From contig QPGO01000239.1 of NCBI GenBank assembly GCA_008632985.1, positions 62,001-91,509 of the forward strand: DNA of 29,509 nt. The letters are read 5' to 3'. Below the pieces are notes generated by a model. The model searched no databases, was not told the DNA's origin, and saw only the letters and a program-made list of their open reading frames with translations. Both the position numbers and the translations under genes were made by a program. This document shows, one piece after another, positions 225 to 28,519 of this stretch. How positions within the stretch are numbered: the stretch's first letter is position 1; every line of letters starts with the position of its first letter. The stretch is from Psammoneis japonica. Its lineage: Eukaryota.

Positions 225-354
225 AGTCGCGTGCTTTGCCAACTTCAAGGGCCTTGTACTTGAAATTTACCGCGAAACTCTAAATAGGAGGAAGATGGAT
301 GTCAATTTTTTTGCAACACGAGACTGGCAAGGCTCCGAGATTCTCGCTCCGATT

Positions 355-470
355 GAATAGTAGTTAGCCTACTACTATCTCACAACTACGTACTCTATGT
401 ACAGTACCTCTCTATTCCTTACTACTCTAGCTAGTAGATAGAGCTTTACCGGGACCCTACTGCCCTACAC
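355..470. repeat. TAG/CTA-rich low-complexity intergenic patch
   Basis: About 21 TpA in ~115 nt (hand count). Contains CTACTCTAGCTAG at 422-434, which recurs at 13927-13939. Confidence 0.7.
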
Positions 471-1041
471 AGCTCAAAGATCTGAGATTGAAATACGGAA
501 ATTTTCGATGTGATTATTCTGTACTTCATGTCTGATTAAAAAATATATATGAAAAAGCATCTTTTTTCTTTTTTCCTCGTCGCGAGGTCTTGCGAGTTCT
601 CACCCTTTGTTGTCGTCGTCGCCTCTCGTTGTCGAGCGACGTTGTCTTGTGTTTTGTTCTGTTGAGGAACGGATCAGGTTTGGTATTCATACTAGTACTG
701 TCGTTGCAACGGCATTGCTGTAAAAGGCGCTTGCTGTCTAAAAAAGCTATTCATGCCGAAGTGGCTAAAAAAGAGCGGCTCACCCAAAAAGAGCTCAGCA
801 TCAAAGGAAGAGCAGGTGAGAATCTTTGGAAGATCTTTTTCTGCGCCACGTTTCGATCGATCTGACGTGCAACTCAGTACGATTTCTACGTGCAACCTGA
901 GCTTTCTCACATATGCTCTTCTGAATTCATTAATTCTCAAACTCTTTTGATTAGTCGACGGATAGTGCTAGCGTTGAAGGCCCAAGGGAAATACCAAGCA
1001 CACCCTCGGACAACACCGTGCGTGTTGACAACACAACTGGT

Positions 1042-2888: not shown

Positions 2889-3119
2889 CGCCAACATGGT
2901 GCTGTATGAGGAATATCCGTCTTCTTTTGTTGGGATTTATGGAAGTTTGCTTGAAGCGCCCGCTTATCTAAGAATTACGGTGAGGCTCAGGATGAATACG
3001 ACGAGTTTTGTGATATATTATTTTGGATTTACTAAATGAAAGTAGAGTCAGAACCCTACTCGAGGAAGTATCTAATATGCACTCTGAGATTGGTCATGTA
3101 GCAATTGAAGAGACAAGAA

Positions 3120-4696
3120 CTATTGCGCCACAGCATGACCCTTGTTTTGGTGCTTGTGATGCACGTCGGCCGCATGGACCTTCTTGTGAGCCACCTTGTG
3201 CTGATCTGGTTTCTCCTCGCGCACGATACTCTTGACGACGCCGACAGCAACCGTCTTGCGCATGTCACGGACTGCGAAACGGCCGAGTGGAGGAAGCTCC
3301 GCAAATGATTCCACGCAAAGTGGCTTGGTGGGCTTGAGCTGCGCGATCGCCGCATCTCCCGTCTTGATGAATTTAGGATTTTCCTCCAAAACCTTGCCGG
3401 AGCGACGATCCATCTTGGACTTGATAGTCTCAAATCGGCATGCGACGTGGGAGGTATGGCAGTCAAGAACAGGACAGTAGCCAGGAAAGATCTTGCCAGG
3501 ATGATTCATGATGATGACTTGGGCGTCAAATTCTTTCACACCCGAAGCAGGGTCTTTTTCGGAATCGCAAGCCACCATACCGCGGTGCAAGTCCTTGACG
3601 GAGACATTCTTACAGTTGAATCCAATGTTATCCCCGGGCTCAGCATGATCTAGAGCAGTATGATGCATCTCGATAGACTTGACTTCGGATACGATGTTCG
3701 ACGGAGCAAACAACAGCTTCATTCCAGGCCTCATAATGCCCGTTTCGACTCGTCCAACCGGAACCGTTCCAATGCCACCAATCTTGTAAACATCCTGAAG
3801 AGGCACACGAAGCGGCTTGTCAGTGGGACGCTTGGGTGGGTGTACATTGTCAAGTGCCTCTAGCAAGGTCATTCCCTTATGCCAAGGCATGTTACTGGAC
3901 CTCTCAATCATGTTGTCCCCCATCCAGCCACTCACTGGAATGAAAGGAATCTTGTTTGGTTTGTATCCAACGTTCTTGAGGAAATGAGACACCTCTTGAG
4001 TGATTTCGTCAAAGCGCTCCTTCGAATAATCCACAGCATCCATCTTGTTAACACCAACAATCATCTGCTTGACTCCGAGCGTGTGAGCAAGCAAAGCGTG
4101 CTCACGAGTTTGTCCCTCCTTTGAGATTCCAGCTTCAAAGTGACCAGGGGCGGCATCAATTACTAAGAGAGCCACATCTGCCTGGGACGTGCCTGTGATC
4201 ATGTTCTGTGTCAAAAAGAAGCGATGCGATGAGTACATCAGGCTGGGAACGCAGCAGTAGATATGGAATCCGGAACGAAACGAATCGCCAGGAGGTGGCC
4301 GTGACTTAAACGTACCTTGATAAAGCTGTTATGTACAAAAAACAAAAGATGGGGGTGAGCTTCTATCGGAGAATCAAAGAACAGCTAGCGGATATGGCGG
4401 ACTTACTCGCGATGACCTGGAGCATCAATCACAGTCACCATAAACTTGGGCGTCTCAAACTTCCAAAGAGCGACATCAATGGTGATTCCACGTTCGCGTT
4501 CCGCTTTTAAGTTGTCGAGCACCCACGCGTACTTGAATGATGCCTTGCCCAACTCGGCGGCCTCCTTTTCAAACTTTTCAATTGTACGCTTATCAACGCC
4601 CCCTAACTTGTAAATCAAGTGTCCCGTGGTTGTGGACTTCCCACAATCGACATGGCCTATCACCACAAGATCAATGTGAGTCTTTTCCTTTCCCAT
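3120..4696 (-). CDS. EEF1A: Translation elongation factor 1-alpha, 461 aa; exons 4696-4407, 4325-4316 (10-nt micro-exon), 4205-3120
   Basis: MGKEKTH start, [24 protein letters not shown], and [15 protein letters not shown] introns at 4406-4326 and 4315-4206 restore the invariant APGHRDFIKNMITG. Confidence 0.96.
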
Positions 4697-5131
4697 TGCT
4701 TCTCTGTATCTTTTCTGTTTATTGTGCTATGCAGGAGATGAGAACTCCACACGGTACACGGTGACGCGATAGAGCGATGAGAACCCCCGTGTCAAGGTGA
4801 GTCATGGCTTCGTTGCGCTCATCCAATCATCTTGCTTGATATGAAAACAATTCAGAATCACCAGCAGCGTCTCATAAGCTTCATGGTTGACTACTAAGAT
4901 CATAAAACAGCATCTGCACACCACTGTTGCAAGTGCAAGAGGAAAATACCGGTACCAAATCGCATCATTGTCTATGGTGTGTGTTGCTTTGTTGTGGTTG
5001 GCGCCGGAATCTGAACCGCCACCAATGTCGCTCTCGGGACTCAGTGAGTCGTGTCGCGGTTGCGAGTCCCGCGAAGCCATAGTCTGCCGTAGCTGGTGGC
5101 TCTCTCTCTGTCCTGAGATTTTGGATTATGA

Positions 5132-5237
5132 GAAGTATAAAAGGGGAGGCCGCCGAAGGCGGCCCTGAAGTATAAAGTGAAAAGAAGAAAAGGGAGAAAA
5201 GGAAAAGAAAAGAAGAAAAGGGAGAAAAGGAGAAGAG
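5132..5237 (+). repeat. GC hairpin flanked by GAAGTATAAA direct repeats, followed by a polypurine tract with a tandem duplication
   Basis: GAAGTATAAA at 5132-5141 and 5167-5176; hairpin at 5148-5164. Purines only over 5179-5237, with GAAAAGAAGAAAAGGGAGAAAAGGA at 5179-5203 and 5207-5231. Confidence 0.85.
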
Positions 5238-5240
5238 TTT

Positions 5241-8200
5241 CTACATTGTCAATTTGTGGCCGTCAGGCTTTCCTGCAAAGTGTTCTGGCAACGCTTTGTG
5301 GTGCTCTGGTTTTGTGTTGTAGAGTTGAGCTCCTATGGCTTTTAGCCATGGGGCAGCATTGGCATAGGAAAGGCCCGAAATCATGTCTTTGGTGAGCACT
5401 CGTGCCAGTCGAGGTCTCTTTGCCCCGGCATCTCCTTGGTGCAACCGGGCTCTACGAATTTTCCTGCCACGTTCTTTCAGCAGCCGTTTGACGTGTGAAA
5501 CACAAATCTTGCCACCAAGGCCCACTAAAGATCCAGTGCCTCGCATCATGTTGGCGTGTTGAAGGTTCCATGCACTAGAAACTTTGCTTGAGAAATCCTC
5601 ATCGCTCAAGTTGTCACCAAACACTTTCTGCAATTCCGCCACCACACTCCAGAGCTGTGTTGTTTGCCAATCAGACAGACTTTGCGACTCTAAAAGGCAC
5701 GCATTTTGGAATGTCGGCGTGTCCACCTTTCCCAACTTTCGATTCCAAACTTGCTGCCCACAACAAAAATCTCTGCAGACGCCAGGGGATGAGGAGCTGA
5801 GGAAACCATGGCGCCAGCGGCAGGAGCAGCAGTGGGGGCGACGCCGGCCATCAAAGTCGGCATGTTGAAAGTGCCGGCAGCAGCAGCTCGTTCGGCATTG
5901 ACAACAGCACCGTGGGTGGCGACACTGGCTGCAGCAACATTGGCCAGGGCGCCATTCGCAGCTTCCTCAATGCTTTCAGTCGGCGCCTCTTCATTTGATG
6001 ATGGAGAGGTCGAGCTCCCCATGCCTGCACTCATGAGCAACAGCTCTTCTTCAACCTTTGCCCATTCCTTGTATTTACCATGGTCTGTGCCGATTGGCTC
6101 ATCACAATCCCCGAGCTCTGGAGGGAAGTCGATTCCATGGCACATCGACAGATTGGAGTGCCGAGCCAGGAGTGCCTCATGCAAGTGCCATTCAAGAGTA
6201 CGAGGGTCAGCAATGTTCAAGAGTTTCGCAAGCTTCTTGTCCTTGTCAAGGTTGAACCTTGTCACTCAAAGCCACAGCTTTTTGTTGGCAAGGCCAGAAG
6301 ACAATCGACCAACATCCCGAACAAGACGGTTCGCTTGTTTGTTGAATGCCTCTCCCTGCGATGTTGAACGAATTCTCACCAAGTCTGAATGCTCATCGTC
6401 GGGATCTGTCTTAAAGCTCATTTGGTCTGGTGGCAGTGGATCTTGACAGCAACCTTTGCGAATGTGCTGAAGCACATTGTCAACCTCTGCCTTTGTTCCC
6501 CGTCGCTTCCCTTTCACCGGCTTCAGAGTGCACATCAAGCATCCATTTCCTTTGAATGCTTCTTCAGCTCCAAGCTTTTCCTCTGCCTTCTCAATGTCAT
6601 TGCAGCATTCTTCAATTTCCCTCGCCATTGTGTCTTTGTCTGGCACATGGTTTAACGTCTTGTCCTTGCACTTCTGCTTTTTCAGCATGACCGGCACTCC
6701 CAATTCTCTTGAGCACGAAACCTCCTTGGGTTCTTTTTTGAAGAGCTCAAAGGTGTGGTTGCAGCTGGCTGTGTCAAACTTGAGACTCTTAGATGCAAAT
6801 GCCGTAGTGAAGGTCCTGTGAAGCTCATGATCCGGGCCACGTGTCGACTCGTGTGCTTTTTTTTGCCCGTGCATGTTGTCTTTCAAGGGCGCCTCCTCCG
6901 CACCCGGCCTGCACTGCGCAAACCAATGGGCTTTACGGTCCTCACAACCACCACAGCAGGTGTCGGAGTGTGCAAATTCCACTCCATCCACGTGTGTCTG
7001 CCCAAGCCGTTCACAACGTTTTCGGAGAAAATGGCCAAGCTTCTGGCACACATCGTCGCTCTCCGATTTCGTGAAAGCCCAATTCATTGCATGCCCACAC
7101 ATTCCAAAAAGAATTGCTGAGGTGTTGATGTCTTCCTCTGAATCGGGGTCATTCACAGTCTTTTTTCCACATCAAACGTCGCGTCCCACTTGATGCATTT
7201 GCCCGGCGACCAACTGAATAAATCCCGTTTCAGATGTGGAAACACCGCATCAAAGCAACGGTCGAATGTTGCCTTCAGTTTCTTTTCGTCCGGTGGCACA
7301 AAGATTTTGTTGCATCGAGCTGCTTTGAAATCAGGCCATTGTGCTTGTCTGCATCTTCCTCCTCGAGAAAATCCATGTGCGCCTTGACAGCTTTTGTTCC
7401 ATTGCATTCAAATGTTTCTCGAAAATCTCGGGCCATGTCCGCAAACACCGTGTCATCCTTCAACAGTTGGTTGCACAGTTCTTTTGTAACAAACACTTCT
7501 CCATCTTTGCCATCTGCTGTTTCTGTCTCAATGAATTCTGAACACCTTTCCCGGAGCTTCCTTGGATGCTGCGACCACGTGTCAGGTTCACACATGGCAA
7601 AGTCATGGGAGCTGGTGAGATCTGTGCCATCACCCACCGCCTTCTTGGGATTTCCAGCACAGGTGACGTTGCTGCAGGTTCCAATGGCAGACAAGATGGG
7701 GATGCGGGTCTTGCATCCAGCAATGGTGCAAGTTGAATCCTTCTTGTAGCCGGTTCTGTCATCATGCCGGACGCTCTTGTTGCCACCACACCATGGACAG
7801 GGTGTCTTGACGCCCACAAGTTTGCGACCATTTTCATCAATGTGCTCACAACGACATCTTTCATCCTTGATGAGAATGTCTCTGTCAAAAACATCAGGAA
7901 ACACACAAAGCAAATGAGTCCCTGGTGGGACTTCAAATTCGCTTGCGGCCTTCTTCATTCCCACCAGACTCCACTTGGAAGATTGGGCGTGGGGACCAGA
8001 AATGGTGAGTTGAGTAAGACCTGTCTGCTTGTGCTTCTTAGCTTGCACCTCTGGTTTTGAAACGTGACGAATGAAACCCTGGGGAAAGAACGTGTGGATG
8101 TGCTTTTCCAGAGTCGTCCCATCATGCAGCTGCTTTCGGTGAAGCAACGCCTGGCACCCACGGAGCCCTGGCTTCTTTAAATGAGCCATGCCATTGTCAT

Positions 8201-8291
8201 CCAAAGAAGGAAACCAGTCAGACCTGTGCATTCGATGAATGCATCGGTCAATTCCTGAAAGAGAACCTGTCTCGTTGGGAGGTTCGGCCAT
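5241..8291 (-). pseudogene. Frameshifted putative RNase H-fold (DDE) transposase with an N-terminal Cys cluster, resembling KDZ-like/DUF6729-type proteins
   Basis: ORF pieces 7275..8291, 7153..7407, 6266..7156, 5690..6265 and 5241..5735 tile into ~1000 codons, with three frameshifts and an in-frame TGA at 6266-6268 (KLWL*VTRFN, likely CGA->TGA). Motifs in order: CPWC..C..C, IKWDATFD, (Y>H)SDTCC, LKDNMH (DxxH), RSTSQGEAFNK. The family call is from remembered motif similarity only. Confidence 0.62.
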
Positions 8292-8404
8292 GGTGAAACG
8301 ACGAATGTGTCAACAGTGCTGCCGATGCTCTCACGTTGATGTTGTTGTTGCTCCGTCTCAGCAAAAACTAGCGTGTCTTTCCATGTGTCAAACATGCGGT
8401 GTCG

Positions 8405-8607
8405 CTGCGTCGGAGATTGCAGCGATTTTGTCAAATCTGCGTCGGATGATGCTGGCTTTTCTACGTCGGAAGTTCTTCCGTTGGCAAGTCTTTTCTGCTG
8501 AGGCTACGACAAATTGTGCATGTAAAATGCAACACAAAAGTGACGCACGTCGGATGGGTGCAAAATTTGTGTGGGCCAAATCCTTTTCTACGTCGGATCC
8601 GACGTAG
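8405..8607. repeat. Subterminal array of a 9-10 bp motif (TA/TG/CA)CGTCGGA ending in a perfect 20-bp palindrome
   Basis: CTGCGTCGGA 8405-8414 and 8437-8446, CTACGTCGGA 8461-8470, GCACGTCGGA 8545-8554, CTACGTCGGATCCGACGTAG 8588-8607. Confidence 0.9.
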
Positions 8608-8989
8608 GTCCTGGCATGTGTTTTATGCTTCTGACTTGAATTTTTCCATGCACTGCTGGCTGGGGTGTTCCTAGAGAGTGAACTTCCCGGCTGCGCTCCA
8701 CCATGCCAGAAAGAATGGATTTGACATTGTGCATGCAGTCGAGCTTCCCTGATGGTCTCAAAGGGTGGTAATTGATGCGGAACTGAGTGACAGTGCGAAG
8801 GGTGCACACGTGGAATTGTCTTGGAATTGAGCGCCACCAACCTGTGACAGAATGAATGTCGAAGCTCGACCGCAGACAAGGCTCAATCTTTTGAATGCCA
8901 GAAAGTGAGGGCAGTTCAAATTCAAATGGTCTGAGCTGCCACCAGCAGCTGCCATTTTGTTCCATCACAAACTCTTGTGCAATGAACAT

Positions 8990-10310
8990 GATTCTGTTCG
9001 AAGCCTAGAAACTCAGCTTTTCCAGGGCATCTCAAAAACAACAATGGGGATGAATCCAATCCTTTCCTTTGCATTGAAAGATGAAATCACATCAGAGAAG
9101 AGGACAAATTGTGGGCCATCATTGACCAAAGCAGAAAGTGAAAAGTGCTGCCCACAAGGTTCAGCGACAAAGTCACCGTGTCGCCGTCGCCAAAAGTTGG
9201 ATGGAAAGAGTCACAAGGACCACCATCTTTCTGGACTGCACAGGCAGCGCCATTGTTTCCATGCACCCAGCCAACATTGGGGTGCACAGGATGTTCGGAA
9301 GAAGCCACACCAACCAAAGTGATGCCACACATGGCTGCAATCTTGACTTGCCATTTGTGCATTCCATCTTGAAGGGCATTGACGCTGAGCATTTCGGCAA
9401 CATGGGAATCAGCAGTGCAGCTAAAGATTTTGCTGCTGGAGCTTTTCCATGCACAGTTTTTTGGGCACCCCAGGGAGCTGAGAGAGATGTTGTGTTTTGC
9501 TTGTGCGCGGACAAAGCCTGGACCCTGCAGGCTTGCATGAGTTGTTGTGTGGCAACGAGACCAGACGTGGCAACAATTGCACCCAAGTCACTGGGCTCAA
9601 TGTTCTCCAAGTTAAGAAATTTTGAGAGTTCTGCAGCTTTCCGCTTCCCACCCGCATGGCCATCATTGTCATCTGCACTCTGAAGTTCGATTTGCGACCA
9701 ATCATTCAGCAACTTAAAGAGCAAAGTGTCATCGATCCCAAGCCTCCCATGATGGACAATTCTTTCAAGGGCACTGGCGTTCATCACACACAGCAGTCCT
9801 TCATTGAAAACAGAGTCAAGATTCATGATGATCTGTTGGAGCACAAAATCCAGACTGCTTGAGTTGCGGAGGGAAAGGAATGATTCCGAGGCAGCCAGGA
9901 ACTCCAAAGCAACTGCATGATTTTCTGACATGACTTTTCACAAATGTTCCATGATTTTTGCACAGATCAGTGGTGATTCAAGGCAAATGGCAGCTTCCAC
10001 AAGTTCCCCGGCCTTCTCAGTGAAGTCGGTTTGACTTGCTTCTGCAAACACAACAAGGATGTCAGCCGTGTTGGTGCAGGCATGCGACACCAAAGACTCC
10101 AGCATGTCTCCGGAATGCGGAAGATTCACTTCCTTGCTCTTGGACTTGGCAAACTCTCCAGCATGTCATCAAACATGGGCAAACACAACACCATGAATGC
10201 AGTGAATGGCTGGAGCGCATGCCCCGTCAGATCCAACAAGTGTCAAATCATCACATTTGTTGCCATTCCTTTGTTGATCAAGATTTTGCTGTTGGCAGGC
10301 ATGATGATTA
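8990..10310 (-). pseudogene. Decayed BTB/POZ-BACK protein gene with a C-terminal SPRY/concanavalin-like domain
   Basis: Pieces read DLTLVGSDGACAPAIHCI (BTB start), LESLVSHACTN (expected ..EYxYTD), LFKLLNDW, LNLENIEPSDLGAIVATSGLV..LMQACRVQAL (BACK end), then HKWQVKI..GVA..FGDGDTVTLSLNL. Interrupted by stops and frameshifts; ends approximate. Confidence 0.72.
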
Positions 10311-10779
10311 AAGGGAGTGCAAGCAGTGTCGAAAGTCAACTCTGTGCTCCACAATGCACCACTGGAGCAGAGGTCTAGCTTGTTGCAGATTGTTCTTGTG
10401 AAGCAGTGACAACAATGACAAAAAGCTGAGTTTGGAAAAAAGATCCAACACTGCACCAAGACAGATGACCATGCCTTGATGAAACCAACCAACAAACGCG
10501 TGCACAACGCACATGATGCCTGCTGGCATGGGGCAATCGGGACTTTGGAAATTTGCACTCCCTGCCTGCAACTGCAATGGCTGGCTCTGGTGGCTGGATC
10601 TGGTTAAACTGTGGCCACATCTGCGGTTTGTTGAGTCTTCAGTTGTTGTCTGGGAAGAATGAATTGTGAGACCATCTCAGTTGTCAAAAACACGCCATTT
10701 CAGTGACCGGCATTTTTTCTCCGTTCCCCACCTGAAAGCAAAAAGCTGTGACACTCCACATTGTGACACAGCCTCTGCC

Positions 10780-11560
10780 ATTTTGCAGCCTGCTAGAAAT
10801 GCCTTGGAGCTTGCTGCTGGCAAGTTCCCATCTTTCAAGCCCACATCAACAATTGGAAACAAAGTCCTTGCCAGGACCGCTTCAAAAGCATGTGTGGTCA
10901 TCACACCAACCCATCATGTGGAGAGGGCTTGACCCCAGTTGCCTGGACCACCTTGGACTGCACAAGTGAAAAAGACCAAGACATCACCAGGATCTGATGC
11001 AGACCAATTCAACTTGTCTTTGCCATCTGTGGACATTTCTGTTTTGTCAGCAAAGTGTTGTGGATTGTGGTTGCTTCCAGCCACAAACTGGAGATCTTCC
11101 TTGGGGCTGACAGAATTGTGTGGAACAAAGACAGAGGCAACTTGTGCTCCCTTGAGTCTTCCAACATCTGCCATTCTGATGCCATGACATTGTGGTGTTG
11201 ACACTCCCTCCTCTTTGACAAAGAGAGCTGGTTGCACAAATGCCTCATGGTTGGCGAGCCCATGACATTTCCAGCAATGGCAACAACAGGGATCGTGCAA
11301 AGCAAATGCAGCAAACAGGGGGGGGTGACAACCAGAGGTTTGCAACAAAAATGCTGGGAATGGTTGGCCTTTTCAGGTGTTTGACACAAGGCCCCGCCTC
11401 ATCCTCTCTTGGGCATCCACTGCACAGCAAGTCCAGCCACTTCTTTGAAAATGAACTGGGAACTTTGGTCATGCCTGTGTGGCATTGTGCTCATGAACCA
11501 TGGCTTGTGTCACCTGCCTTGTTGCCGTCTCTGCTTCTTTTTGCAGTCAGTGCCTTGGTC
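10780..11560 (-). pseudogene. Decayed phytanoyl-CoA dioxygenase (PhyH-like 2OG-Fe(II) oxygenase) gene
   Basis: Pieces read KVPSSFSKKWLDLL, FVKEEGVSTP, SVFVPHNSVSPKEDLQFVAGSN, and DPGDVLVFFTCAVQGGPGNWGQALST* (expected PGDvlvF...vHgapgN..RAlstRw.gdd). Frameshifted; ends approximate. Confidence 0.62.
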
Positions 11561-11879
11561 ACAACTCTTTGCATGGAAGGTTTGTTGGGGTTGCATTTTT
11601 GTGAAAAAAAAAGTGGCCGCACTGCACCACAAGGTGCAGCATTTGTCAACTGCATGGAATCCCATGCAAAGCATGCCCATCAGTTCTCTCACTGCCACAT
11701 TGCAGTGCACTTCCCAACACTTAAAGTGAAGGACAAGCTGCACCCATCCGTGCTGCACCATGCTCCACTGACAACCAGCTCTGCCTGCTCTGATCTTGGG
11801 GGGCAAACTCACATTTGCAGTTTGCTTTTTCACCCCAACTTGTCCATTGGCACAGTGTCCTGACAATCTGCAAATCCAG

Positions 11880-13400
11880 GGACTGCTGCTGGATGAGCCA
11901 TTTCATGCTCAACATGATTGTTCTTCAGTCTCCAGCAACAAAGCGCAAGCTGCACCTTCGTGTGCAACCCTTGGGGTGCCTCTCAAGTGTGCTCTGGGTG
12001 TGAAAGAATGTCCAAGTGAAAGTCCTCTAAAAGTTCTCTTGACTTGGGGTGCATTTGATCCTCACCCCAATCATTGAGAGCAAAGCTTTTCCCTTTCATT
12101 TGAGTCCTTCTCAATCAAAATGTTGTGTTTGGCAATGTGTCTCCATGTCAAAGCTTTGCTTCATTGGTGCTCAATGCAGTGGTTTTCCTCCAAAGTTCTT
12201 GAAACATTTTGTTGAATTTTGTCAAGTTTCCATGTCACAGGGCTTTCAACATGAATCAACAGGCAGCAACAACTCTCTGAGACAGTGGAGGCAAGATCTG
12301 GGTGGGTGTGAAGGACATCTTTTTGTCATTTAGAGGCTCCATGCTTTCCCTGAATTGAGCACCACAACAGAAGAAAATTTTGATTGGAAGGCATCATGCT
12401 GAGAAAGTTTGGTCCTTCTAGATCTCCTCCTTCTGCTCACAAAGATGTGGATCCCCATGACTTCCCAAGCTCTGTTCTTTCCAGAACATCAGAAAACAGG
12501 AGCTGCCACCCCCCACTGCACTCTAAATCACAATGCTTTCAGCAGAAGACATTGGAGCCAAAGTCTTGTGGTGCAATGAGTCACACTGGAGAAGCACTCC
12601 AGATGATGCGTGTGGTCTTCTTCTCCCACAGCATTTCTTTGATGAGGAACTGGTTGAGAAGCTTGCCAACAATGGCAACATCATTGTCCAGAGATGCATC
12701 TCTTCAAAACAAGTTGGACAAGGCATTCTGCTGAAGCATCTGGGAAGAGACAGCTTCAAAAAACAGGTGCAGCACCGTGCATCAGATGCCAGCCTCCCAA
12801 GTCAATTTTGTTTCCCCACTGCTTCAGATGACAGCTGAAAGGACCACAAATGATGAACCTCTGCTGCCAGCTGCTGAAACTTTGCAAGAACAAACAGAGG
12901 AGGAGCATCAAGCATGTGCCATGCTGCATCAAAGCTTTGCCAACACAGAAATTTTCATTGTTCTTGGTCTCGCCCATCACAGCATCTCTGTCATCATCAT
13001 CAGTGCTTGCAATGATGCACACACTGGGTCTTGAGGTTGCTTGAACAAAGAGCTTGGCTTGGCTTGGAAGCCTGCAGCCTGCACTGCCTGAGCAGCTTCT
13101 TTGCCAACTGGGTTTGCTTTTGAAAAATGGTTTCTCATGTGCAAATCCAGAGCAGTTTTCATGTCCTTCTTTTGGCACAAAAACCACCCAGGTTGGCAAT
13201 GTGCTCAAGCTTGACAAAAAAATGTTTTTTTTTGGCAGCTTCCTGGATTCTCTGGAGGAGTGGCAATGTTTTGCAGAACAGACATTGCGCTGAACACCCT
13301 GTGCTGCTGCAAACCACTCTTTGTTGTTCCTTTCAGTGAATCTGCAGCTGCCTTCACAAAATCCTTGTTGGCTTCACTGCCACCACACCGACGCTGCTGT
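11880..13400. other. TpA- and CpG-depleted decayed sequence, probably formerly coding, unidentified
   Basis: Protein-like fragments on the + strand (12533..12838, 12777..13034) but no family recognised. No TpA between 12526 and 13547. Confidence 0.4.
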
Positions 13401-13891
13401 GCTGGCTTGTGCTCACCAGTGTCACATGAGTGACCACCCTGTCTGAATTCTCAGTGGCTGCACATCATTCCTGCTTGGATTGGGATCTCTGTCAGGCCAT
13501 GAGCAACGCTTGTGCTCAACGCAAGCGGGGCCCCTCGTTTTCCATTTTACAAGCTTTTTGTGTTGTCTGTTTGGCATTTCACGTGGCATGAGCGAGGGTC
13601 GACAATGACCCGCGATCATGCAATGTGGCAACAAGCACTGGACAGAGTGAGTCTTCAAAGAGCTCTGGAAAAGTGGCAGTGTCTCACCTCCATTTATTGA
13701 AAGGGACTCAACATCGCTGCAGAGTGAGCAATGTCTGTTGAGAAGAAGGTCCCTGATCGACCACCACCGAACTGAGAGTGTCGCTCTTCGCTCGGTTGGT
13801 CGGGCTCCGCTCCGGCTCCTGAGGAGGAGTGGTGTCGCGTTTTTGAGTCCCGCAAGCATGGCAAACGGCAACGTCCGCCACGACTTCGTAG

Positions 13892-13939
13892 GCCCCACTG
13901 TGCCGGTGGGGCATTACTCGAGGTCTCTACTCTAGCTAG
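13892..13939 (+). mobile_element. Possible Helitron-like 3' terminus (GC hairpin followed by CTAG) at the right edge of block 1
   Basis: Hairpin GCCCCACTG-TGC-CGGTGGGGC at 13892-13912 (single mismatch explicable as CpG->TpG). CTCG at 13917-13920, CTAG at 13932-13935 and 13936-13939. No Rep/helicase coding sequence seen. Confidence 0.35.
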
Positions 13940-13947
13940 AGTAGAGA
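13924..13947. repeat. Perfect 24-bp palindrome TCTCTACTCTAGCTAGAGTAGAGA inside a TAG/CTA-rich patch
   Basis: Read directly: TCTCTACTCTAG followed by its reverse complement CTAGAGTAGAGA. Confidence 0.9.
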
Positions 13948-14255
13948 GTAGAGGCTACTTCAGCTAGTAGTAGATTTCATTCTTTATGCAGTAGCATGTT
14001 TGCAGAATGATCGGTGTGTAGGCAGTTCATCCGGGCAACAAGCACGGTACTATTCTTCTGCTATCTAGCTAGGGCTACGATACATACTGTAGAGGCTTTC
14101 TCTCTGGAGAACACGCAACGCTGGCAGGAAGCTGTGGCGCGGATAACTTTGGAGTTTCAGCATCAGGGTCTTCTGTCCTTGTTCGTTACATCTATGAAAC
14201 GAAGCTTAGAAAACTAAACTTTGCGGTTTCAGAAATTCATAAAGAACGTATTATT

Positions 14256-14857
14256 TTAACAGCTAAGAGGACGTGTCCGACCAATTGTTTGATGACACGT
14301 CGGACACGAGTGAACACTGGTATAGCAACACGGGAGCACTAACGGTAGCCAAAAGAGCGGCCAACAAATGAATATCATGAGCACGGTGGCCAAAACAGTC
14401 ATCCAGTCTATTCGAAGCCGCACACGCGTTGATATGCTTTGTTGGCAATTTGGACATGTGATTCGTTCTGACCTTCTGAAAACAAAAGCAACGAGTGAGA
14501 AAAGAATGAGATCGTCACATGCTTCCGCCACTTTGAAAAGAACTGGCGCAAATCAGTTTTCTTACCGACCCAAGTTACCATAGACGCGTCCGGGTGCCAC
14601 TGGTATAACAGTGTGTTGATCAGCATACGCAAATGTGGTCGTGGATGACATTGGGGGGCCAGATGATGGCGGACTACTCGCCGGTATCGGCGTCGATGGG
14701 TATGGATACGCATGAGTAGACGAGTTGACTCCATGACTTGATGTGGAACCGTAGTTTGTATCGAATTCCTGAGGAGGTGCCGAAGGAATTGCGTCAACCT
14801 CCATGTCTGGCTCCATGGGAACCGCGTCCACCAATGGGATCGGAGCGTCAACACCAC
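14256..14857 (-). CDS. LITAF-like zinc-ribbon membrane-associated protein with a Pro-rich N-terminus; intron 14565-14476; start uncertain
   Basis: CPNC...hydrophobic hairpin (ICWPLFWLPLVLPCC)...HSCPTC is the LITAF pattern. A 90-nt GTAAG..CAG intron joins ORFs 14562..14867 and 14256..14531 in frame. Possible acceptor at 14858, or an internal Met start near 14815. Confidence 0.85.
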
Positions 14858-15624
14858 CTGCAAGCAACCATTTAAGAATAAATCGTGAGCAAGAATCAGC
14901 ATCAACATCGACACATGCTATAAGCGTTCAAGGCTAAATATATATTATGCGTGAGTCAGAAGTCAGAACGCTTGTTCTCTCTAGAGAGAGTGGCTCTCCT
15001 CTCTAGAAGACAGGTTTTCGTTATTGACACCCCGCAACGAGACCCACAGAATCATGAGTGGATGTATTTTCCAACAAAGTACTGTATTTTGTTGGATACA
15101 ATGCCTGTTGAAGTTTTTTCCATCACATACCTTGTGTCATGTTTGACGTGAAAGTTTTATCGTACTTTTAAGAACGGTGCTTGTCTGGTTTTGCTAAACA
15201 AGCTGATGCGTTGCAGGAGATGATGAGCATCTTCCAACTTGACGACGACTACTCTTGACTCGATATTTGGATTGAGGACTGACGAGAACGGCAAAAAACA
15301 CGACTCAAAATTCATTTAGTCGAACTAATCCGTTTTGGCGCGAAAAAATGATGAGTCAGGGACAGCCACGTGAACGCTTGTGCATGCGAGACTCCGTGGC
15401 AGCTGACGACTTTGGCGTCAAGACACGCAGACACCAACACAACACATTTTGGCGGGATGAGACAAACGACGCGCAGTCAAATAAAGAACACGTCATTCAC
15501 GGTATCTCAGTGTGAGAGCAAAGTGCTCCTAGGGTATTGTTGTGATTGCTGACTGCTTCGCTGACAACGGCGATCGAAACACACGCACTATTTGCATTTT
15601 ACTGACCCATATCACTTTTTCGTC

Positions 15625-16427
15625 ATGTTGAGATTCACTGCCGTTGTCCTCGCCGTAGTTGTGGCTGCATGCGCCGTTGCTCCTATCCAAGGCTTTGCTC
15701 CTTCGGGCACAACGTGCAAGCCTGTTGCCTTTACTAGAAACGCTATCAGACTACACGCCGAAGAGGGTGGTGATGCCGTGTTTGTTCCTCCTGAAGAAAC
15801 CCAAGAAGAAAATGATGATACCTTTGAAAAGGTGGAATCACTTGGTCGAGGATCAGCCAAGGTAAGAATCCTTTCTGTCCCCTCTTTTTCGATCTTGAAG
15901 TGATGTTTGCCGTATCTTACTCTCTGCATTTTCTCACTACGCACTTGCAGAAAAAGCGTGGTCGTCGTAAGAGTGGAAGTGCCGAGGGATCGAAGGTACG
16001 AAAATCGGCAGCATCCCTTGCACCGGAAGAAGTTTTCTATGAAGGTCCGCCAGCGATTACCGAGACGATTGCTCCCACGGCTTCCATTGTGACTGTGATT
16101 GGCATTATCCCCGCCGCGGCAGCTTGGGCCCGTCAGGCTTGGGTTCGTTATAAGATTACAACCCGTCGTATCCGCGTCACATCCGGAATCGGCGGCAAGG
16201 ACATGGCCGAAATTGTCTACCCGGACATTGTAGAGATCCGAACCGCCAAGCGTCTCTTTGGTGACGGCGACCTTGTGGCATTTCTGCGTGACGGAGCCAA
16301 GTTCGAGATGCGCAACATACCGAATTTTGAAGAAGCCATGGAATTCATTCTCAAACAAGTGGATCCCCAAGTTGCAGCCACTTACAGGGAAAAGGGCGAT
16401 GTCACCAACCCGGAACCTAAGGAATAG
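15625..16427 (+). CDS. Plastid-targeted bacterial PH-domain (bPH_2/YdbS-like) membrane protein; exons 15625-15861 and 15951-16427
   Basis: Signal peptide plus IQG-FAP (ASAFAP-type) and a transit-like segment. Phase-0 GTAAG..CAG intron at 15862-15950. EEVFYEGPP..WVRYKITTRRIRVTSG..GDLV..LRDG.KFE resembles the cyanobacterial-type PH-domain family. Confidence 0.78.
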
Positions 16428-16712
16428 AGTCCGCAGCTGATTTCAACACACAATACACATTTGCAACTGCACGTAATTTGAAAGCTATTTAGTAAACAAA
16501 ATCTTTTTTATGCTTCTGTTACTTGCTGTTTGTATGATTCGCTAACCCTCGCTTTTCCTCAATTTTGATATCTAGTTAGCTTGGTTGGCAATACGAATAC
16601 ATGCTACACTGCTGTTCCATGGCATTGTAATTGCATCCAACGTTGCTCGTTCGATCCTTATCACAGGCCTCCCCTTTGCAAGGCTGAAGAGGGAAAGGAA
16701 CAAAATAGAGAA

Positions 16713-17881
16713 CTATAGTTTCTTCATCCGGTCATCTAGATCCAACATGTTCTGTTCCATCGTCTTTAGATTGTCTCCCATTCCTGCCTCGAGCTGCGTG
16801 AGAGTCTCCTCTAAGTTTTTCAAGGTTTGTTGAGACGCTCCCGCAGCTTGCTCTGCGGCAGTCAATCGAGCGCTGAAGGTTCCTGTCTGTTTGTGAAGCG
16901 ACGCCAGTTCCTGCAGACGAGTCACCAGTGCCGGTAAATGATCGGATACACCCTCCAATTGAATCATGAGATTGTACAGTTCATCAATCTTCTTTGCATC
17001 CTCGGTGCTGGTGCTGCCGGTGGTTGAAAGTTTCGCACGCGCCTTACTAGCAGCCTCTAAGTCCGCTCTTTTGTTAACCAAGAATAGATAAACACAAAAA
17101 TAGGGAACTAATCAGGACCAACAAAATACCGCAGTAGTTTAGCAAGCACTTACAGGACACTGGCTGCAACTTACCGAATAACTTTAGCTCGTGTCGCTGC
17201 TTCTTCGAGTGACTTGGGTTCAACGCTCTTGATCATTTTCTCCACCTCATCAAGTCTTGCAAAGAATGTCTTTGAAGACCCCGCCTCGGAAGATCCCAAG
17301 ATTTGCTCCAATTTGCAGAGTCGTTCCTCTGCACTCGATGTTGGAGGGCCGCCGTCCGTGCTGGGTGCACCATAGAGCTCATAAACAATACCTTCTGGTT
17401 TGTCCTCGTCCTGATCGTCATGAGTCCACCGTTTTGCCTTCCATCCCTCAACTTGCTTTTGTAGACTCTGCGTAAGTCGACCCTGCTGTGTGTTATTGTT
17501 GGATGAGGCAGCTTCAACACGTGCCGCCAGCTCGGACGCAGCCAATGTAAGTTCTTCTGGCGTAGCCGCAGCATCGGAATCAAGATCTTTTTCCAACTGC
17601 GCAACTTCTTCTTTAAGGCGTGCTAAGCGCTCCAGGGGAGTTTCAGTGTATCGGGTGACGACACTCCTTCCGGTCAGCGATGGAGCATAGACCTTTCCAG
17701 AAAAGACCTCAAAGGCTTGCGTCGCACCAACTCCGTCGCCGCTGTCCAGCACATCGTCTCCTGTTTTCTCTGGAATTGGAACCGATGGAGGTCGTGGAGC
17801 AGGTATTGGTGGAAGACCATCACTCGAAAATACAGCCTCTCCACCAGCCTCGTCGGCAGCGTCGGCGGGAGTGCTGCTCAT
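16713..17881 (-). CDS. DCTN2: Dynamitin (dynactin subunit 2/p50)-like; exons 17881-17175 and 17067-16713
   Basis: ETPLERLARLKEEVAQL, IVYELY, EERLCKLEQILG, KKIDELY, LPALVTRLQELASLH, and a C-terminal NM..LDDRMKKL. A 107-nt GTAAG..AAG intron at 17174-17068 keeps the frame. Confidence 0.82.
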
Positions 17882-18379
17882 GGTGCTCTAGTAGCACAAT
17901 CTCTGCGTGTTATTTTGTGTGTTGGGGGTTGGAGGTTGGAGTGTGCGGAGAACGGGACACGAGGTTTTTTGTGGAGCCAGGCAGGGTTGCACGAGTTTTT
18001 GTACGAAATCTTAGTTTTCACGAGCTCTCCGAATTCTTACATTGCATGATGAGAGATTGGGGGATGTCTTCGGAAGTGAGACTGTCGAAGAAAGTTACGT
18101 AGAATTTGTAATAAAACATTCTGTCAATCAGTGCGATTGGGTATTTGGGATCTCTGGACAGATCCTACGTGTTTTCTTGTGCGTACAAAATATACTGGGA
18201 AAACCCCAAACGCACTGGCGATCAGACCGCCTTCGACGATCTCACTTCCAAAGACGCCCCCCAAGATGGCAAATCACGGTCCCGGCGGCGGAACATGCAC
18301 GCCCTGCCTTCGATTTACCTCCTCTCTCCCCGCCCCCACCTCGTCCAGCCCTTCTACTAAACGCCCTATGTCCTGCGCT

Positions 18380-19620
18380 TGCTGCCCATTTTGTTCTTCC
18401 ATCACTGCAGCTCTCTCCGTGCCTCCTTCTGCTGTCCCCTTCTGCTCTGCATGGGCTCCTTAACTCTGCACTCAGTTTAAAGTGGTGCTGGCCTGGGGCT
18501 GGCAGCGCACGCCAGCACAACTTTTGGTTTTGTGCACTTGCATCGCCCCACAAACCAACAGCACAAAATTTGCACAGTGCCGCAGGAAGCAGGAACTCCC
18601 TGTGCACACGAAAGCTTGCAACACCCACAGGAGCCCTCCCCAGGTTTGTGTTTGTGGCACAACAAGAGGCGCTGCTGTGAAGAGCTGGGCAGTTCGCACC
18701 AGGTGCAACAGGTGTGTTTGACACAACTTTGCAAGAGCTGGCTGCACCTTGCAGAAGCAGCTGTTGAAGTCCTCAGTTGAAGCAAGTTGGGGAACTTTGG
18801 AGACCAGGAGATTTGATTTGCAGCTCAGAGCCTGCAATGACACAAACTGAAGAGGTGCTTCTTTTCCATCATGCCAGAGCATTGAGCATCTGCACATTTT
18901 CTGCTTGCACTGTGAACATGTCTCATGCATTCTCACATGGTCCAATGACCATGCATTGTGCATGTGAGATGGAACAACAATGACAGGCACAAAAAAAAGG
19001 TTTGGTGGTGGCAGCAGCAGGGAGCGGCTGTGCCTCTGTCTTCAGCTGGCACCAGCATCAGCCCAGGATGAGGACCCATGCTGCTGCCAGCTGAGCTGCT
19101 GGTGCACACCAAGCAAATGTGTCCCACTGGGGGTTTCACCCAACTCTCAGTCACTGGCTCACCCCGGCTTTGTTTTGATCTCTCAGGATGAGCAGCTCTC
19201 CCATTTTTGCAGCACAGCTTTGCCTCTCCCTCTCCATGATGCAAGGGTGTGACATGCAAGAGATGCCTGTTCTTCCCTCTTGCTCAGTCACAGAAAATGG
19301 GTTGTTATCAGCAGAACATGCAGAGTGGGAGAGAGTGCTGCAACAGAGGCCAGTGCAGCATGTGTGGTGCTGGAAACACAGCAAGACTGCGCAACAGATC
19401 TCAGGGCAATGGCCATGTGCGCAAAAATGCAGCAGCACCAGCGTGCACCATGGAAGCACAGGGGAACTCTGGCGGTGGCTCAGTGACTTGCTGGGCACAT
19501 GAGGGGTGAGGAGCATCTGCGCGCATGGCAGAATGTGCGCGCCATTGACACACCATCAACACAAGCATGACAACACAAGCAGAGGCACAGTGCACACACA
19601 TGCACACATGACAACATGCA
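18380..19620. other. TpA-depleted decayed repeat-like sequence upstream of the Gypsy remnant, unidentified
   Basis: Only one TpA (19306) between 18480 and 19620. The CA/TG-rich stretch at 19550-19620 may be a formerly TA-rich LTR-like segment. No protein family recognised. Confidence 0.45.
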
Positions 19621-19883
19621 ACAAGTGGGGTCAGAAAAACTTCAACACAATTGACTGCATGTGATCAACAAATGCAAGCCAATGGGGAATTTTCATGATT
19701 CCTCATTTGCATGACTCCACTTTTCCAGAGATGAAACTGGCCTCACAATTTTCACCAAAAATGACTCTTGACAACTTGCTGTTTTCATCACTGGCAAATG
19801 GTGCACAAGGCACAGCAATGTTGCTCCTGCGCAAGTGTGTGACAGTCACTGCTTCAGTCAAACCACTGATTGGCAAACCAACC

Positions 19884-22145
19884 ATGAAAAAGTGGATTGA
19901 ACTGATGATTGATTCTGCTCAAATGTCTGGAGAGAAGGTGCTGTTCAAAGGAAAGCAATGGCAGACTTGTGAGCTCAGGAGTTTGCCAGCTGATGCTGAC
20001 AGTCCAATTGTGAGCTGAGTGTTCCATGCTTTTGTGTGTGCATGTGCAGAGCACCTGCCATTCCTGATGTGAAATGCTGAGCATGTCATGGCAGAGCAAA
20101 ACATCAAAACAGGTCTGGAAAATTCTCAGTTGTGTGCTGGCGGTGGTTGCTCAAAGGCAATGCCTTGACTGCACTCAATGATGAAGCTGAGGGCACACAA
20201 CAGAGACCAATGCATTGGTGCAAACATGTGTTGCAAAGGTTGTTGCTGAAGCATTTTCCATTCAGGGAATCACTGCCACAAAAGCATCATCTGTGATGTT
20301 TTGTGCTCAAATTGGTTGGCCAACATGAAGACTTGTGATCATCATGCCGCAAGAGCTGTTGAGCTGCTCAATGGCCGCATTTTGCTCTCTCTTTTGTGTT
20401 GCTGCCAGATTTTGAGCTGGCTGACTTGTTTGAGAAGGGGCGCCAAACTCATGGCAGAAACAGACAATTTCACAAGGATTGTGACCCACTGGCACATGCT
20501 GTTGCCCAATTTGTCTCTTTCTGCAGGCATGTGGAGCAAGCTGAAAACTTGCCAAGGCAAGCAGGGAAATCATGCAAAGGTTTGTGAGGGAAGCAAGGCA
20601 ACAGAGCTGACCCAGCCCTTGATCGTTGGTTGCGAGTCATGAGAAAAAAGCTGCCAAATGCTGCATGCTCTGTGGTGATGACCAGATGCATGATGCAGAA
20701 GAATGTCAAAGTTTGAAACGTCCCATGAAATGTCTCAAGATGTCCAGGGCAGACAGTCACACTCAGACGAACTCCTTGTGGTTGCCAAAAATGCTTGCGA
20801 AGATCACTCAAAGACATCGATGGTTGCGCTGCAGTGCACACACAATGCTGGACTAAAGGTTCAAGGTTGATGCAGGAAGGACATTTTGTCAAACCCAGTT
20901 GGAGCATTTGGGCCACTCAGTTGTTTGGGTGGGGGATGCTCCAACACCTTCCAAAGTCAAAGCTGTCAAAATGCTTGCACAACTTGCAGCCAGGATTTTT
21001 TCTGAGTGGAGTGGATGCACATTGAAGACAAAACATTTGAAGCCATTGAGATGGCAGTGTCACATGATGTGTTGTTGTGCCCTGGGATTTTAACAAACCA
21101 TTTGAGGTTCATGCCCCTGATGCCTCCAAGTGTCAACTCAGAGCAGCAACATTGCATGCCAATGAACCCACTGCCTTTTATGCTGGCAGCAAGTGCTCAA
21201 AAGTGCACAACACTTTAAACTGTGCAGCGATGGAGTGAGAGTTGCTTGCTGTTGAGGAAATGTCAAACAAAGAATTTTGAGTGTGCTCTTCCTTGTCCAA
21301 CATGTGATGGCATGTGCTGGTCACAAAAACCTCACATGCGAGCTGTCCAACACCAAATGCACCATGCATTGGCAGTTGACATGTGAGGAATGTTGTGACA
21401 TGTCAAGGGATGTCACACTCTGACACCTGGCTGCACACACCCTCAGTTGTCCTGTGTGCTCATCCAAGTTTGGAGCCAGGGTGCAGCCCCACACAGTCTC
21501 AGAGATGCCAGACATGCATCCTCTGCACACAGCACCCACTTTGGAGAGCACAGCACTGCCAGCAAGCTTTGAGAAAATGCAGCAAGAACAGCAGAAGGAG
21601 AAGCATCTGTTGCTGAGAGGAAGCATGGGAAATTGCCGATGCATCAATTTACATTCATGGCTTGAGCACATGTGTGGCGAGGTGGCATTCGTGGCAATTC
21701 CCCAGGAAACCATGCTTCCCGTGGAAAATCACGGTGAAAGGTGACAACCCCGGGGAATTTTGGGGAACCCATGTGGCAAAACCAAACTGAGGACCAAAAA
21801 CCACAGTGGGTGTGCTGCCAGTGGCAAGAAGCTCCAAAATGTTCACACACCACAGCAGAGTTGCCACACGCTGTCAATGTGCACACTTGCAGTTGCACAA
21901 AATGTCACAAACTGGTCCTCACACGCAACTCTGTGCCACACACAACAACCCAGCTGAGTGGAAACGCTGTTTTCACCCAAGATGCCTCCTTTGCCGCCTT
22001 CCAACTCTGCCTCCACAAAATTGAGGGAACATCATGGTGCTTCCTTCCTTTGCAAAGAAGAGTGCGATCCACCAGTGCTCCAGCACACCCAGGGCGCACC
22101 GTTCCACTGCCCACGAGCGATCTGGTGCACCCACTCATTGGGGAT
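19884..22145 (+). mobile_element. Decayed, internally deleted Ty3/Gypsy LTR retrotransposon (gag plus RT/RNase H remnants)
   Basis: Gag-like TCELRSLPADADSP/CELSVPCF, LKGNALTA, NMKT.D..AAR.VEL, KCCMLCG..HDAEEC. RT 3' part FKVDAGRTFCQTQLEHLGH..PTPSKVKAV (~20860-20965). RNase H DFNKPFEVHAPDASKCQL (21086-21139). Purine run then TG near 22140-22146. Paired LTRs not found. Confidence 0.82.
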
Positions 22146-22491
22146 GTGCATCATGACAGCCAACATGCCATCTGGACAAAATTGTTGTGCCAGAGGCATA
22201 AAACATTTTGGTTGTTTTCCTCAAACAAAGGCTCTTCAGTCGAAATCATCATCAGTCGATTCATCACCTGCCATGTACAGTACATGCCGGTAAACATTCT
22301 CCAACGATGTATTTGCCTTACACTCAATCACTTACCGCTACGTGTTTCTTAGTAATGATTTTACATACGTTGACTTTCTTGTAGAAAGATAAGCATTTCA
22401 CCCGACTGAAGAATTTCGCTCGAATGAACCGAGCCACGACCCAACCATCCCGTCCCATTCTTCTCATAAAAAAATCCTTTCGTACTTACAC

Positions 22492-28276: not shown

Positions 28277-28519
28277 GCGATAAAGATTTTCCTTCATCTG
28301 GTAGCCTGAAATTAGGCTCATTAGCGCCAAGGACAGTGGAGCAATAACAGTTTGGACTCAAGATAAAGACAACACAGTAGACAATGGGCGATCCGATCGA
28401 AGGTGCAAACGTCGTCTCGTGCATGTGCGTGCGTGCATGCCTCGTGTGATCCTCCCGTCTGACCGTGGCCACATCCTGAGCTAACTCAATGGCCAAAAAT
28501 CCGCTGTTTACAGTCATAA

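Follow-up and report, generated by a model that had tools for sequence, protein, structure and literature searches.

Flank-biased survival of TpA dinucleotides in four nearly TpA-free blocks of a Psammoneis japonica contig

The depleted blocks and their recognisable genes

The stretch of DNA analysed here, referred to as the window, comprises 29,509 nucleotides from Psammoneis japonica (NCBI GenBank assembly GCA_008632985.1, contig QPGO01000239.1, positions 62,001 to 91,509 of the forward strand). Four blocks of it, named A to D, are nearly free of the dinucleotide TpA, and both TpA and CpG have been turned into CpA and TpG there. An earlier note on this sequence had pointed out that the few TpA surviving in 9001-13500 all lie in YTAR tetramers (Y, pyrimidine; R, purine), and had taken this as the trace of a change directed at TAY, i.e. 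TAY to TGY or, on the opposite strand, RTA to RCA. Our analysis partly supports that interpretation. All block counts given below refer to this one window; the blocks were delimited by counts in 250-base bins.

The block borders are sharp. TpA per 250-base bin jumps from 0-3 to 10-17 at 13750, 18500, 22250 and 28500, which marks the blocks as discrete regions with normal flanks. Across the blocks the observed/expected ratio (o/e) of TpA is 0.02-0.06, and CpA plus TpG account for about 22% of the dinucleotides. The blocks and the genes recognised in them are the following (window positions; strand given for genes).

5256-8294, minus strand: decayed gene of a repeated element, readable in three frames and interrupted by one stop; tblastn matches span 5256-8294
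5750-8350: block A; TpA strongly reduced, CpG only mildly
8350-8800: spacer between blocks A and B; half depleted, with nine TpA, three of them in CTACG
8985-10348, minus strand: BTB-BACK-SPRY pseudogene of about 450 amino acids, in three frames with frameshifts near 9145 and 9470
8985-13700: block B; TpA and CpG nearly gone, CpA and TpG in excess; right border between 13695 and 13751
18480-22200: block C; no family found, partly multi-copy (word depth 71-302)
28520-29509: block D; extends past the end of the window

Statistics were computed on 5750-9000 for block A, on 9001-13500 for block B (hereafter region B), on 18500-22200 for block C and from 28520 to the window end for block D. Since the 450-base spacer at 8350-8800 is only half depleted, blocks A and B may be separately hit units.

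The gene in block A belongs to a repeated element and is probably transposon-borne. Its intact relatives (homologues P0001-P0003; loci L001-L003, including L002:1180-3492 and L003:1002-4109) encode a protein of about 1036 residues with a Cys-rich N-terminal part, and intact copies are found on metagenome contigs. No Pfam family was found for the element protein or its intact relatives; the nearest Atlas clusters carry DUF6729 and, further down, a Mutator-like transposase, and these are taken as a lead only. The element is multi-copy, with a word depth of 174-394 in bins 5601-8600 against 61.5 for unique sequence (3-6 times the unique depth in sequencing run X1). On the families of blocks A and C there are 606 contig pieces, at a likeness of 80-99%. 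At its C-terminal end (5256-5795) TpA is already rising, to 3-8 per 250 bases, so that the depleted zone and the element differ in their left border; Tyr codons are kept at 5366 and 6073.

For the BTB-BACK-SPRY pseudogene at the left end of block B, a full HMMER search yielded 63 homologues at E <= 0.001, unlike a word-indexed protein search with the pseudogene open reading frame (ORF), which yielded nothing. In seven homologues scanned for domains, BTB was present in all seven, SPRY in four and BACK in two. When homologues are placed onto the window by tblastn, the match at the pseudogene reaches 4e-46.

Residual TpA in region B

Region B contains 13 TpA in total, with the T at 9006, 9422, 9613, 9715, 10309, 10376, 10605, 10794, 11722, 12028, 12331, 12419 and 12524. 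All 13 are YTAR (TTAA five times, CTAG four times, CTAA three times and TTAG once), exactly as had been noted. Three undepleted parts of the window (1-5000, 13800-18400 and 22300-28400; 15.7 kb) served as baseline. YTAR makes up 101 of the 579 TpA there (17.4%), and on this baseline a yield of 13 out of 13 has a probability of P = 1.4e-10. The share of one in four that had been assumed for random flanks is thus higher than the local one. The closest TpA beyond region B lie at 8769 (GTAA, an RTAR) and 13548 (TTAC, a YTAY), neither of them YTAR, and the unbroken run of 13 therefore stops near these borders.

TpA is depleted 25-fold in region B (o/e 0.04), CpG is reduced to an o/e of 0.20, and CpA (1.75) and TpG (1.77) are enriched. 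In densities per kb this means 2.9 TA versus 36.9 in normal DNA and 11.8 CG versus 59.7. Among ApA, CpA, GpA and TpA it is only TpA that has been lost, with ApA at an o/e of 1.27, and the two strands are in balance (507 CpA versus 479 TpG).

That these figures go back to chance, to an ancestor that had always been TpA-poor and YTAR-biased, or to a sequencing or assembly artefact is extremely improbable. Such a reading can point to the use of one window only, and to the single run containing the stretch, which may be the assembly's own source. It is opposed by the P value above and by homologues that have Tyr where the window has Cys or His. It is opposed also by a 9527-base contig at unique depth that covers 8403-17929 with 2 differences, by which block B and normal genes are physically joined. 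The stretch 9201-13400 is single-copy, as judged at a likeness of at least 80%; its word depth of 61.5 in run X1 equals that of the adjacent genes. An artefact of base modification at the read level was considered and dropped, since a symmetric modification would give mixed calls and not one clean haplotype. The YTAR observation is confirmed as real and not a matter of chance.

Direction of change and its relation to CpG loss

Three lines of evidence fix the direction of change. First, the mass balance: relative to normal DNA, region B has lost 34.0 TA and 47.9 CG per kb (81.9 together) and gained 78.4 CA+TG. Loss and gain are balanced within each flank class as well, and little room is left for other products. 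Second, the proteins: in the aligned columns the pseudogene has no Tyr against 10.9 in its homologues, 14 Cys against 7.9, 19 His against 10.2 and 6 Arg against 19.2, and the element, over 959 aligned columns, has 4 Tyr against 38.4, 41 Cys against 17.7 and 43 His against 32.1. At some conserved Tyr positions the element has Phe, Leu, Asp or Glu instead, possibly as a result of older divergence. Third, the copies in run X1 differ by 665 transitions versus 218 transversions, and among the 40 of 883 differences listed there are adjacent CA-versus-TG differences at 19847/8 and 20201/2. Taken together, mass balance, Tyr to Cys/His replacement and copy differences indicate that TpA to TpG/CpA and CpG to TpG/CpA have both occurred.

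At the level of single codons, six codons of the pseudogene sit where 49-89% of the homologues have Tyr. They include the residues in SHAC (10076-10087, minus strand) and QAC (9527-9535, minus strand) that had been proposed as former Tyr, and this proposal is borne out by homologues with Tyr at 89%, 64% and 49%. The corresponding proposal for AHSD fails, as three out of three homologues have Val at that place; for LEH and for a codon near 20911 no homologue or family was found by which to judge them. A cellular-type BTB-BACK-SPRY gene, now with two frameshifts and no Tyr, has been destroyed by the same process, and the targets of that process are not only viral or transposon DNA.

Loss of TpA and loss of CpG are separable, and TpA loss is the faster of the two. 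In block A (5750-9000) 0.19 of TpA but 0.72 of CpG survives, and in region B the corresponding figures are 0.08 and 0.20. The relatives at L002 and L003, which come from other sources, show CpG o/e of 0.07-0.41 at TpA o/e of 0.28-0.55, i.e. CpG has been lost there without extreme loss of TpA. The CpG loss in the same blocks is presumably a separate and slower process, namely methyl-CpG decay.

These numbers also bear on error-prone repair as an explanation. Here T:G mismatches arising from methyl-CpG deamination would recruit patch synthesis by a Pol-eta-like polymerase, and its WA to WG errors (W, A or T) would erode TpA. Errors of Pol eta at WA are known from somatic hypermutation, and the sharing of the same blocks by TpA and CpG loss is in keeping with the idea. 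However, changes of AA to AG are not seen (ApA o/e 1.27; 0 of 56 sites with Lys/Asn to Glu/Asp, see below), and, given the mass balance, the transversions that such a polymerase also makes can have been few. Nor does TpA loss track CpG loss: it outpaces it in block A, and the survival values and the L002 and L003 ratios just given apply here as well. With ApA untouched and the two losses uncoupled in this way, a repair error of the Pol-eta kind is quite improbable.

Dependence on flanking bases

Surviving TpA in block A fall into 8 RTAR, 7 YTAR, 6 YTAY and 2 RTAY, those in block C into 3 YTAR, 3 YTAY and 1 RTAR, and block D has 1 YTAR. Compared with the baseline, the 30 survivors outside region B deviate significantly (chi-square P = 0.0075), with 11 YTAR versus 5.4 expected and 2 RTAY versus 9.5 expected. 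The earlier note had made its interpretation depend on a YTAR bias among residual TpA in general; in the other blocks of the window, where this was checked, the bias is present. At the same time 19 of the 30 carry TAY. The flank bias thus replicates outside region B in direction but not in exclusivity, and the strict rule of TAY as the only target fares likewise: TAY on either strand was lost faster than YTAR, and RTAY, which offers such a target on both strands, is the most depleted class, but the target is not confined to TAY.

Survival of each tetramer was pooled over the four blocks and set against the expectation from the window baseline. TTAA stands at 11 versus 11.8 expected, CTAG at 6 versus 25.3 and CTAA/TTAG at 7 versus 42.8. 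The remaining classes are GTAA/TTAC with 7 versus 58.6, CTAC/GTAG with 6 versus 69.6, ATAA/TTAT with 4 versus 60.2, GTAC with 1 versus 39.7, ATAC/GTAT with 1 versus 71.3, and ATAG/CTAT together with ATAT with 0 versus 79.2. When grouped, CTAG and CTAA/TTAG come to 13 versus 68.1 (about 5-fold down) and the other seven classes to 19 versus 378.6 (about 20-fold down). YTAR is consequently not one class: CTAG and CTAA/TTAG are depleted about 5-fold and TTAA is not. The odds ratio (OR) of TTAA versus other YTAR is 4.9 (P = 0.0018), and that of other YTAR versus the remaining classes is 3.8 (P = 0.0008). TTAA is undepleted also when block A is compared with the coding DNA of intact relatives (3 versus 2.8 expected). 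The suggestion that YTAR is slowed rather than immune accordingly holds for YTAR other than TTAA, where 13 remain of 68 expected, and does not extend to TTAA, which is not measurably depleted. A model fitted by hand, with the base on the 3' side of the mutated A as its sole variable, fits most classes, with rates (in minus log survival) of roughly 2.5 for T, 1.9 for C, 0.7 for G and about 0 for A.

A possible origin of the survivors as newly formed TpA has to be weighed against these counts. On this account the residual YTAR would have arisen from CpA or TpG by ordinary C to T or G to A change after the process had ended, or would represent a steady state of formation and loss. Substrate is plentiful, given the share of CpA plus TpG in the blocks, and TTAA at baseline density suits a steady state as well as it suits immunity. 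Newly formed TpA should, however, come in all four flank classes, yet none of the 13 in region B is non-YTAR; a steady state would still require slower destruction of YTAR, which amounts to the same flank rule; and we infer that no known context of C to T change yields TTAA, CTAG and CTAA together. Deamination at methylated CWG was discarded as a source of new YTAR, because it cannot make TTAA. Altogether, an origin of the residue as new TpA is improbable.

Former Tyr codons offer another view of the flanks. Under the TAY rule Tyr may turn into Cys in any context, and into His only behind a purine. In the pseudogene the three His at former Tyr positions (10117, 10084 and 9263) each follow G, and the three Cys (10078, 9985 and 9529) each follow C or T, so that six of six codons in region B are as the rule predicts. 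In block A, Tyr sites were scored where at least two homologues were available and at least half of them had Tyr. There, 5 of the resulting His follow a purine and 4 a pyrimidine (8183, 7033, 6649 and 6082), and 8 of the Cys follow a purine and 2 a pyrimidine. The claim that Tyr to His requires a preceding purine therefore agrees with the region B codons and is contradicted by four of nine in block A. In three of these four the preceding base is C, corresponding to TAG on the opposite strand.

Changes of A to G at the first codon position behind T were scored at residues conserved among homologues. Ile/Met to Val (TAT context) is found at 6 of 46 sites, and Lys/Asn to Glu/Asp (TAA context) at 0 of 56 (P = 0.007). 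Where block A has kept Ile, Met, Lys or Asn, the codon is preceded by C in 31 of 54 cases and by T in 1 of 54; such a preponderance of C is expected from T to C change at the preceding position.

The products were examined as well. Under the TAY rule, lost YTAY and RTAR would become YTGY and RCAR, and the opposite classes are YCAY and RTGR. The counts YTGY+RCAR : YCAY+RTGR are 311:217 in region B and 170:143 in block A. As a fraction, YTGY+RCAR is 0.543 in normal DNA, 0.589 in B, 0.609 in C, 0.557 in D and 0.543 in A, and Fisher tests of the skew versus normal DNA give 0.081 for B, 0.020 for C, 0.017 for B+C+D and 1.0 for A. On expectations that assume CpG decay to split evenly between both products, the no-rule fraction of 0.527 is rejected in region B (P = 0.0046) and the rule fraction of 0.608 fits (P = 0.37). 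In block A the no-rule fraction of 0.531 fits (P = 0.69) and the rule fraction of 0.604 is rejected (P = 0.032).

With these data the strict rule, by which only TAY (that is, RTA on the other strand) is targeted and YTAR is hit very slowly as a bystander, appears unlikely. In region B three tests agree with it, namely the 13 of 13 survivors, the six of six Tyr codons and the product ratio, and RTAY is most depleted in the other blocks. It is at odds with the four block A His codons behind a pyrimidine, with the 19 of 30 TAY-carrying survivors outside region B, with a 5-fold loss of CTAG and CTAA/TTAG in which TTAA has no part, and with the block A products that reject it.

One further context stands out. 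Block A retains 18 TAY (both strands counted), and 7 of them are TACG, versus a share of 11.6% in normal DNA (P = 0.003); TACG sites lie at 6199, 6934, 8462, 8505 and 8589 in block A and at 5453 just outside. An adjacent intact, presumably methylated CpG may protect TpA in TACG.

Other contents of the window

Apart from the element gene and the pseudogene, the blocks yielded no recognisable family. Pfam searches with 39 block ORFs gave two matches under the curated cut-offs, which are taken as chance, and Pfam searches with all six block frames (X at stops) gave one match below cut-off and no genuine family. For 20503-22302, searching PDB by sequence gave no match. The rest of block B and blocks C and D are thus without a family by Pfam on the blocks and by PDB for 20503-22302. 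A suspected reverse-transcriptase-like stretch near 20900 was dropped, as it had no Pfam or PDB match. Paralogues within the window were found neither by exact-seed repeats nor by a purine/pyrimidine-coded self-comparison.

The eukaryotic origin of the window shows in its ORFs, among them matches to EF-1-alpha domains, LtrA, dynamitin, DUF6824, a bacterial-type PH domain and a mitochondrial carrier (Pfam), and in two introns. Contigs of run X2 skip 15860-15948 (plus strand, 89 bases) and 17068-17174 (minus strand, 107 bases), both with GT..AG-type ends; these are introns of the bPH_2-domain gene and of the dynamitin-like gene, respectively. The transcript-like X2 contigs span normal genes and none of the depleted blocks, an observation that we do not count as evidence on expression. 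A repeat of about 200 bases (18057-18264) adjoins block C, with a word depth of about 4000-15000 versus 61.5 and loose ends at 18057 and 18263-18265. This very-high-copy repeat has a normal TpA density, i.e. it is undepleted, and it also occurs in transcript-like contigs of run X2.

Proposed explanation

In our view the 13 YTAR are probably the slow-reacting residue of a near-complete, flank-graded and TpA-specific A:T to G:C process acting on silent DNA, of the kind described for Bigelowiella. Transitions of this kind would have run nearly to completion on a transposon-like gene, on the BTB-BACK-SPRY pseudogene and on sequence that is no longer recognisable. Its preference would be graded by the base on the 3' side of the A that becomes G: contexts with T or C there react fast, those with G several-fold more slowly, and those with A are nearly refractory. 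TTAA, which reads TAA on both strands, would then escape; CTAG, CTAA and TTAG would be lost about 5-fold and all others about 20-fold. Near saturation only YTAR remains, and 13 of 13 follows. We further infer an enzyme that would read T-A-N on DNA, with an adenine deaminase similar to ADAT2 or TadA as the leading candidate. The flank data can equally be described as a change directed at thymine that favours a purine on the 5' side, and the two descriptions cannot be separated by sequence alone.

Several results weigh against this explanation. All baselines are proxies (genes of the same window or distant relatives) and not true ancestors. The agreement of the Tyr codons in region B is based on a small sample of six sites (P = 0.10); block A shows no link between His and a preceding purine (P = 0.35), and with region B pooled in, P is 1.0. 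Block A products are without skew (170:143, Fisher P = 1.0), so that block A and region B disagree in two tests, products and Tyr codons. Thr to Ala behind T (TAC context) is seen at only 1 of 30 conserved sites. CTAA/TTAG is more depleted (7 versus 42.8) than a model of the 3' base only predicts. Finally, the trinucleotide balance, in which the biggest gain is always TGC/GCA, ranks TAC > TAG > TAT > TAA, and the survivors rank TAT/TAC > TAG > TAA. The two rankings and the Thr to Ala result do not give one order among 3' T, C and G; TAA is the poorest context consistently across the tests.

A more far-reaching version is offered tentatively, and we hold it to be possible rather than probable. 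The flank pattern might be the mark of an editor dedicated to TpA in DNA, at work in a second protist lineage besides Bigelowiella. Such an editor would exempt TTAA, would spare TACG as long as the CpG is intact, hindered by the neighbouring 5-methylcytosine, would work about 5 times faster than methyl-CpG decay, and would attack any long-silenced DNA including single-copy host pseudogenes.

Comparison with known systems

Literature searches found a single report of TpA to TpG hypermutation, a preprint on mutation-accumulation lines of Bigelowiella natans. According to its main text, 231 of 302 nuclear point mutations fell in two viral regions integrated in the genome (Mettrop et al., bioRxiv 10.64898/2026.01.13.699255). 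In these silent viral inserts 230 of the 231 de novo mutations were A to G or T to C, and the GC-biased ones were all at TpA; one of the two hypermutable regions is single-copy and transcriptionally silent (bioRxiv 10.64898/2026.01.13.699255). The text further describes 124 genomic clusters whose windows are poor in TpA and rich in CpA+TpG and in which transposon and viral domains are enriched; as DNA adenine deaminase it puts forward an ADAT2 homologue (bioRxiv 10.64898/2026.01.13.699255). That main text contains none of the words "context", "flanking", "trinucleotide" and "CpG", and is therefore without a flank preference or a link to CpG loss (bioRxiv 10.64898/2026.01.13.699255). The phenomenon as such is known from this one 2026 preprint; flank preference and CpG-loss link are not in its main text.

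The likeness to the Bigelowiella case as the preprint's text presents it is close. TpA alone is the target, the products are TpG and CpA, the regions are discrete, at kb scale and with normal flanks, and a single-copy region can be hit. A further mark of the Bigelowiella type is a mutation rate that is at present raised about 1000-fold in the affected region. Differences exist as well. The depletion is far deeper here (TpA o/e 0.04 versus a Rho of 0.45 given for the B. natans insert of a nucleocytoplasmic large DNA virus), the DNA hit includes a host-type BTB-SPRY pseudogene, CpG has gone as well, and the present case is known from sequence only, as an end state. The long, intron-poor ORFs of the window presumably differ from B. 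natans genes. The idea of a TadA/ADAT-type deaminase, put forward in the earlier note, would match the hypothesis published for B. natans.

TadA naturally targets UACG in the tRNA-Arg anticodon loop (TACG in DNA form), with T/U on the 5' side and a 3' pyrimidine as in UAC. The present pattern resembles what is expected of TadA, ADAT2-ADAT3 and the TadA-derived adenine base editors, namely A to I (read as G), a T 5' of the target, as seen in the exclusive loss of TpA, and a 3' pyrimidine favoured over a purine. It departs from TadA in lacking the preference for 3' C then G, with TACG over-represented among block A survivors (7/18 versus 11.6%). TadA/ADAT enzymes are not known to act as natural genome mutators. 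Claims for ADAT2 in amphioxus and Trypanosoma are cited as exceptions in the B. natans preprint (bioRxiv 10.64898/2026.01.13.699255).

In Neurospora and other fungi, repeat-induced point mutation (RIP) changes C to T mostly at CpA and thereby enriches TpA. Shared features would be a mutational attack on selfish or duplicated DNA, sharp bounds, an almost exclusive occurrence of transitions and destroyed reading frames. The chemistry, in sharp contrast, is opposite, since TpA is destroyed and CpA/TpG are enriched here. Repetition also plays a different part: 9201-13400 is single-copy at a likeness of at least 80%, blocks A and C are multi-copy, and the high-copy repeat at 18057-18264 is undepleted. 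Diatoms are reported to carry RID-like DNMT4 enzymes, in passages that contain nothing on TpA (PMC9998398).

Methyl-CpG decay accounts for CpG to TpG/CpA in the same blocks (CpG o/e 0.2). It cannot remove TpA, it is slower than TpA loss in block A, and it runs without extreme TpA loss in L002 and L003. As for the RNA and cytosine deaminases, ADAR prefers targets with G on the 3' side and edits a single RNA strand, and APOBEC acts on C. Clustered transitions of the deaminase type in repeats are a point of likeness to both, and the 5' U preference of ADAR, as cited in the preprint's text, is another (bioRxiv 10.64898/2026.01.13.699255). In the depleted blocks, by contrast, TpA with G on the 3' side reacts more slowly than TpA with a pyrimidine there, TAG survives better than TAY, and CpA and TpG are balanced in region B at 507 versus 479. 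The balanced gains of CpA and TpG and the weak 3' G make ADAR-like editing a poor fit.

Implications

What the blocks display is the process at its end, TpA o/e being 0.02-0.06. A flank signature read from such DNA is information able to identify or exclude candidate enzymes and to guide the choice of test oligonucleotides, and it helps to tell a dedicated editor from errors of a repair polymerase. For genome annotation, depleted blocks give long false ORFs without TAA or TAG stops, whose Tyr-free proteins are missed by ordinary domain searches. A host-type pseudogene and single-copy DNA are among the sequences hit, which has a bearing on the choice of targets and points to silence or chromatin state rather than to repetition or viral origin.

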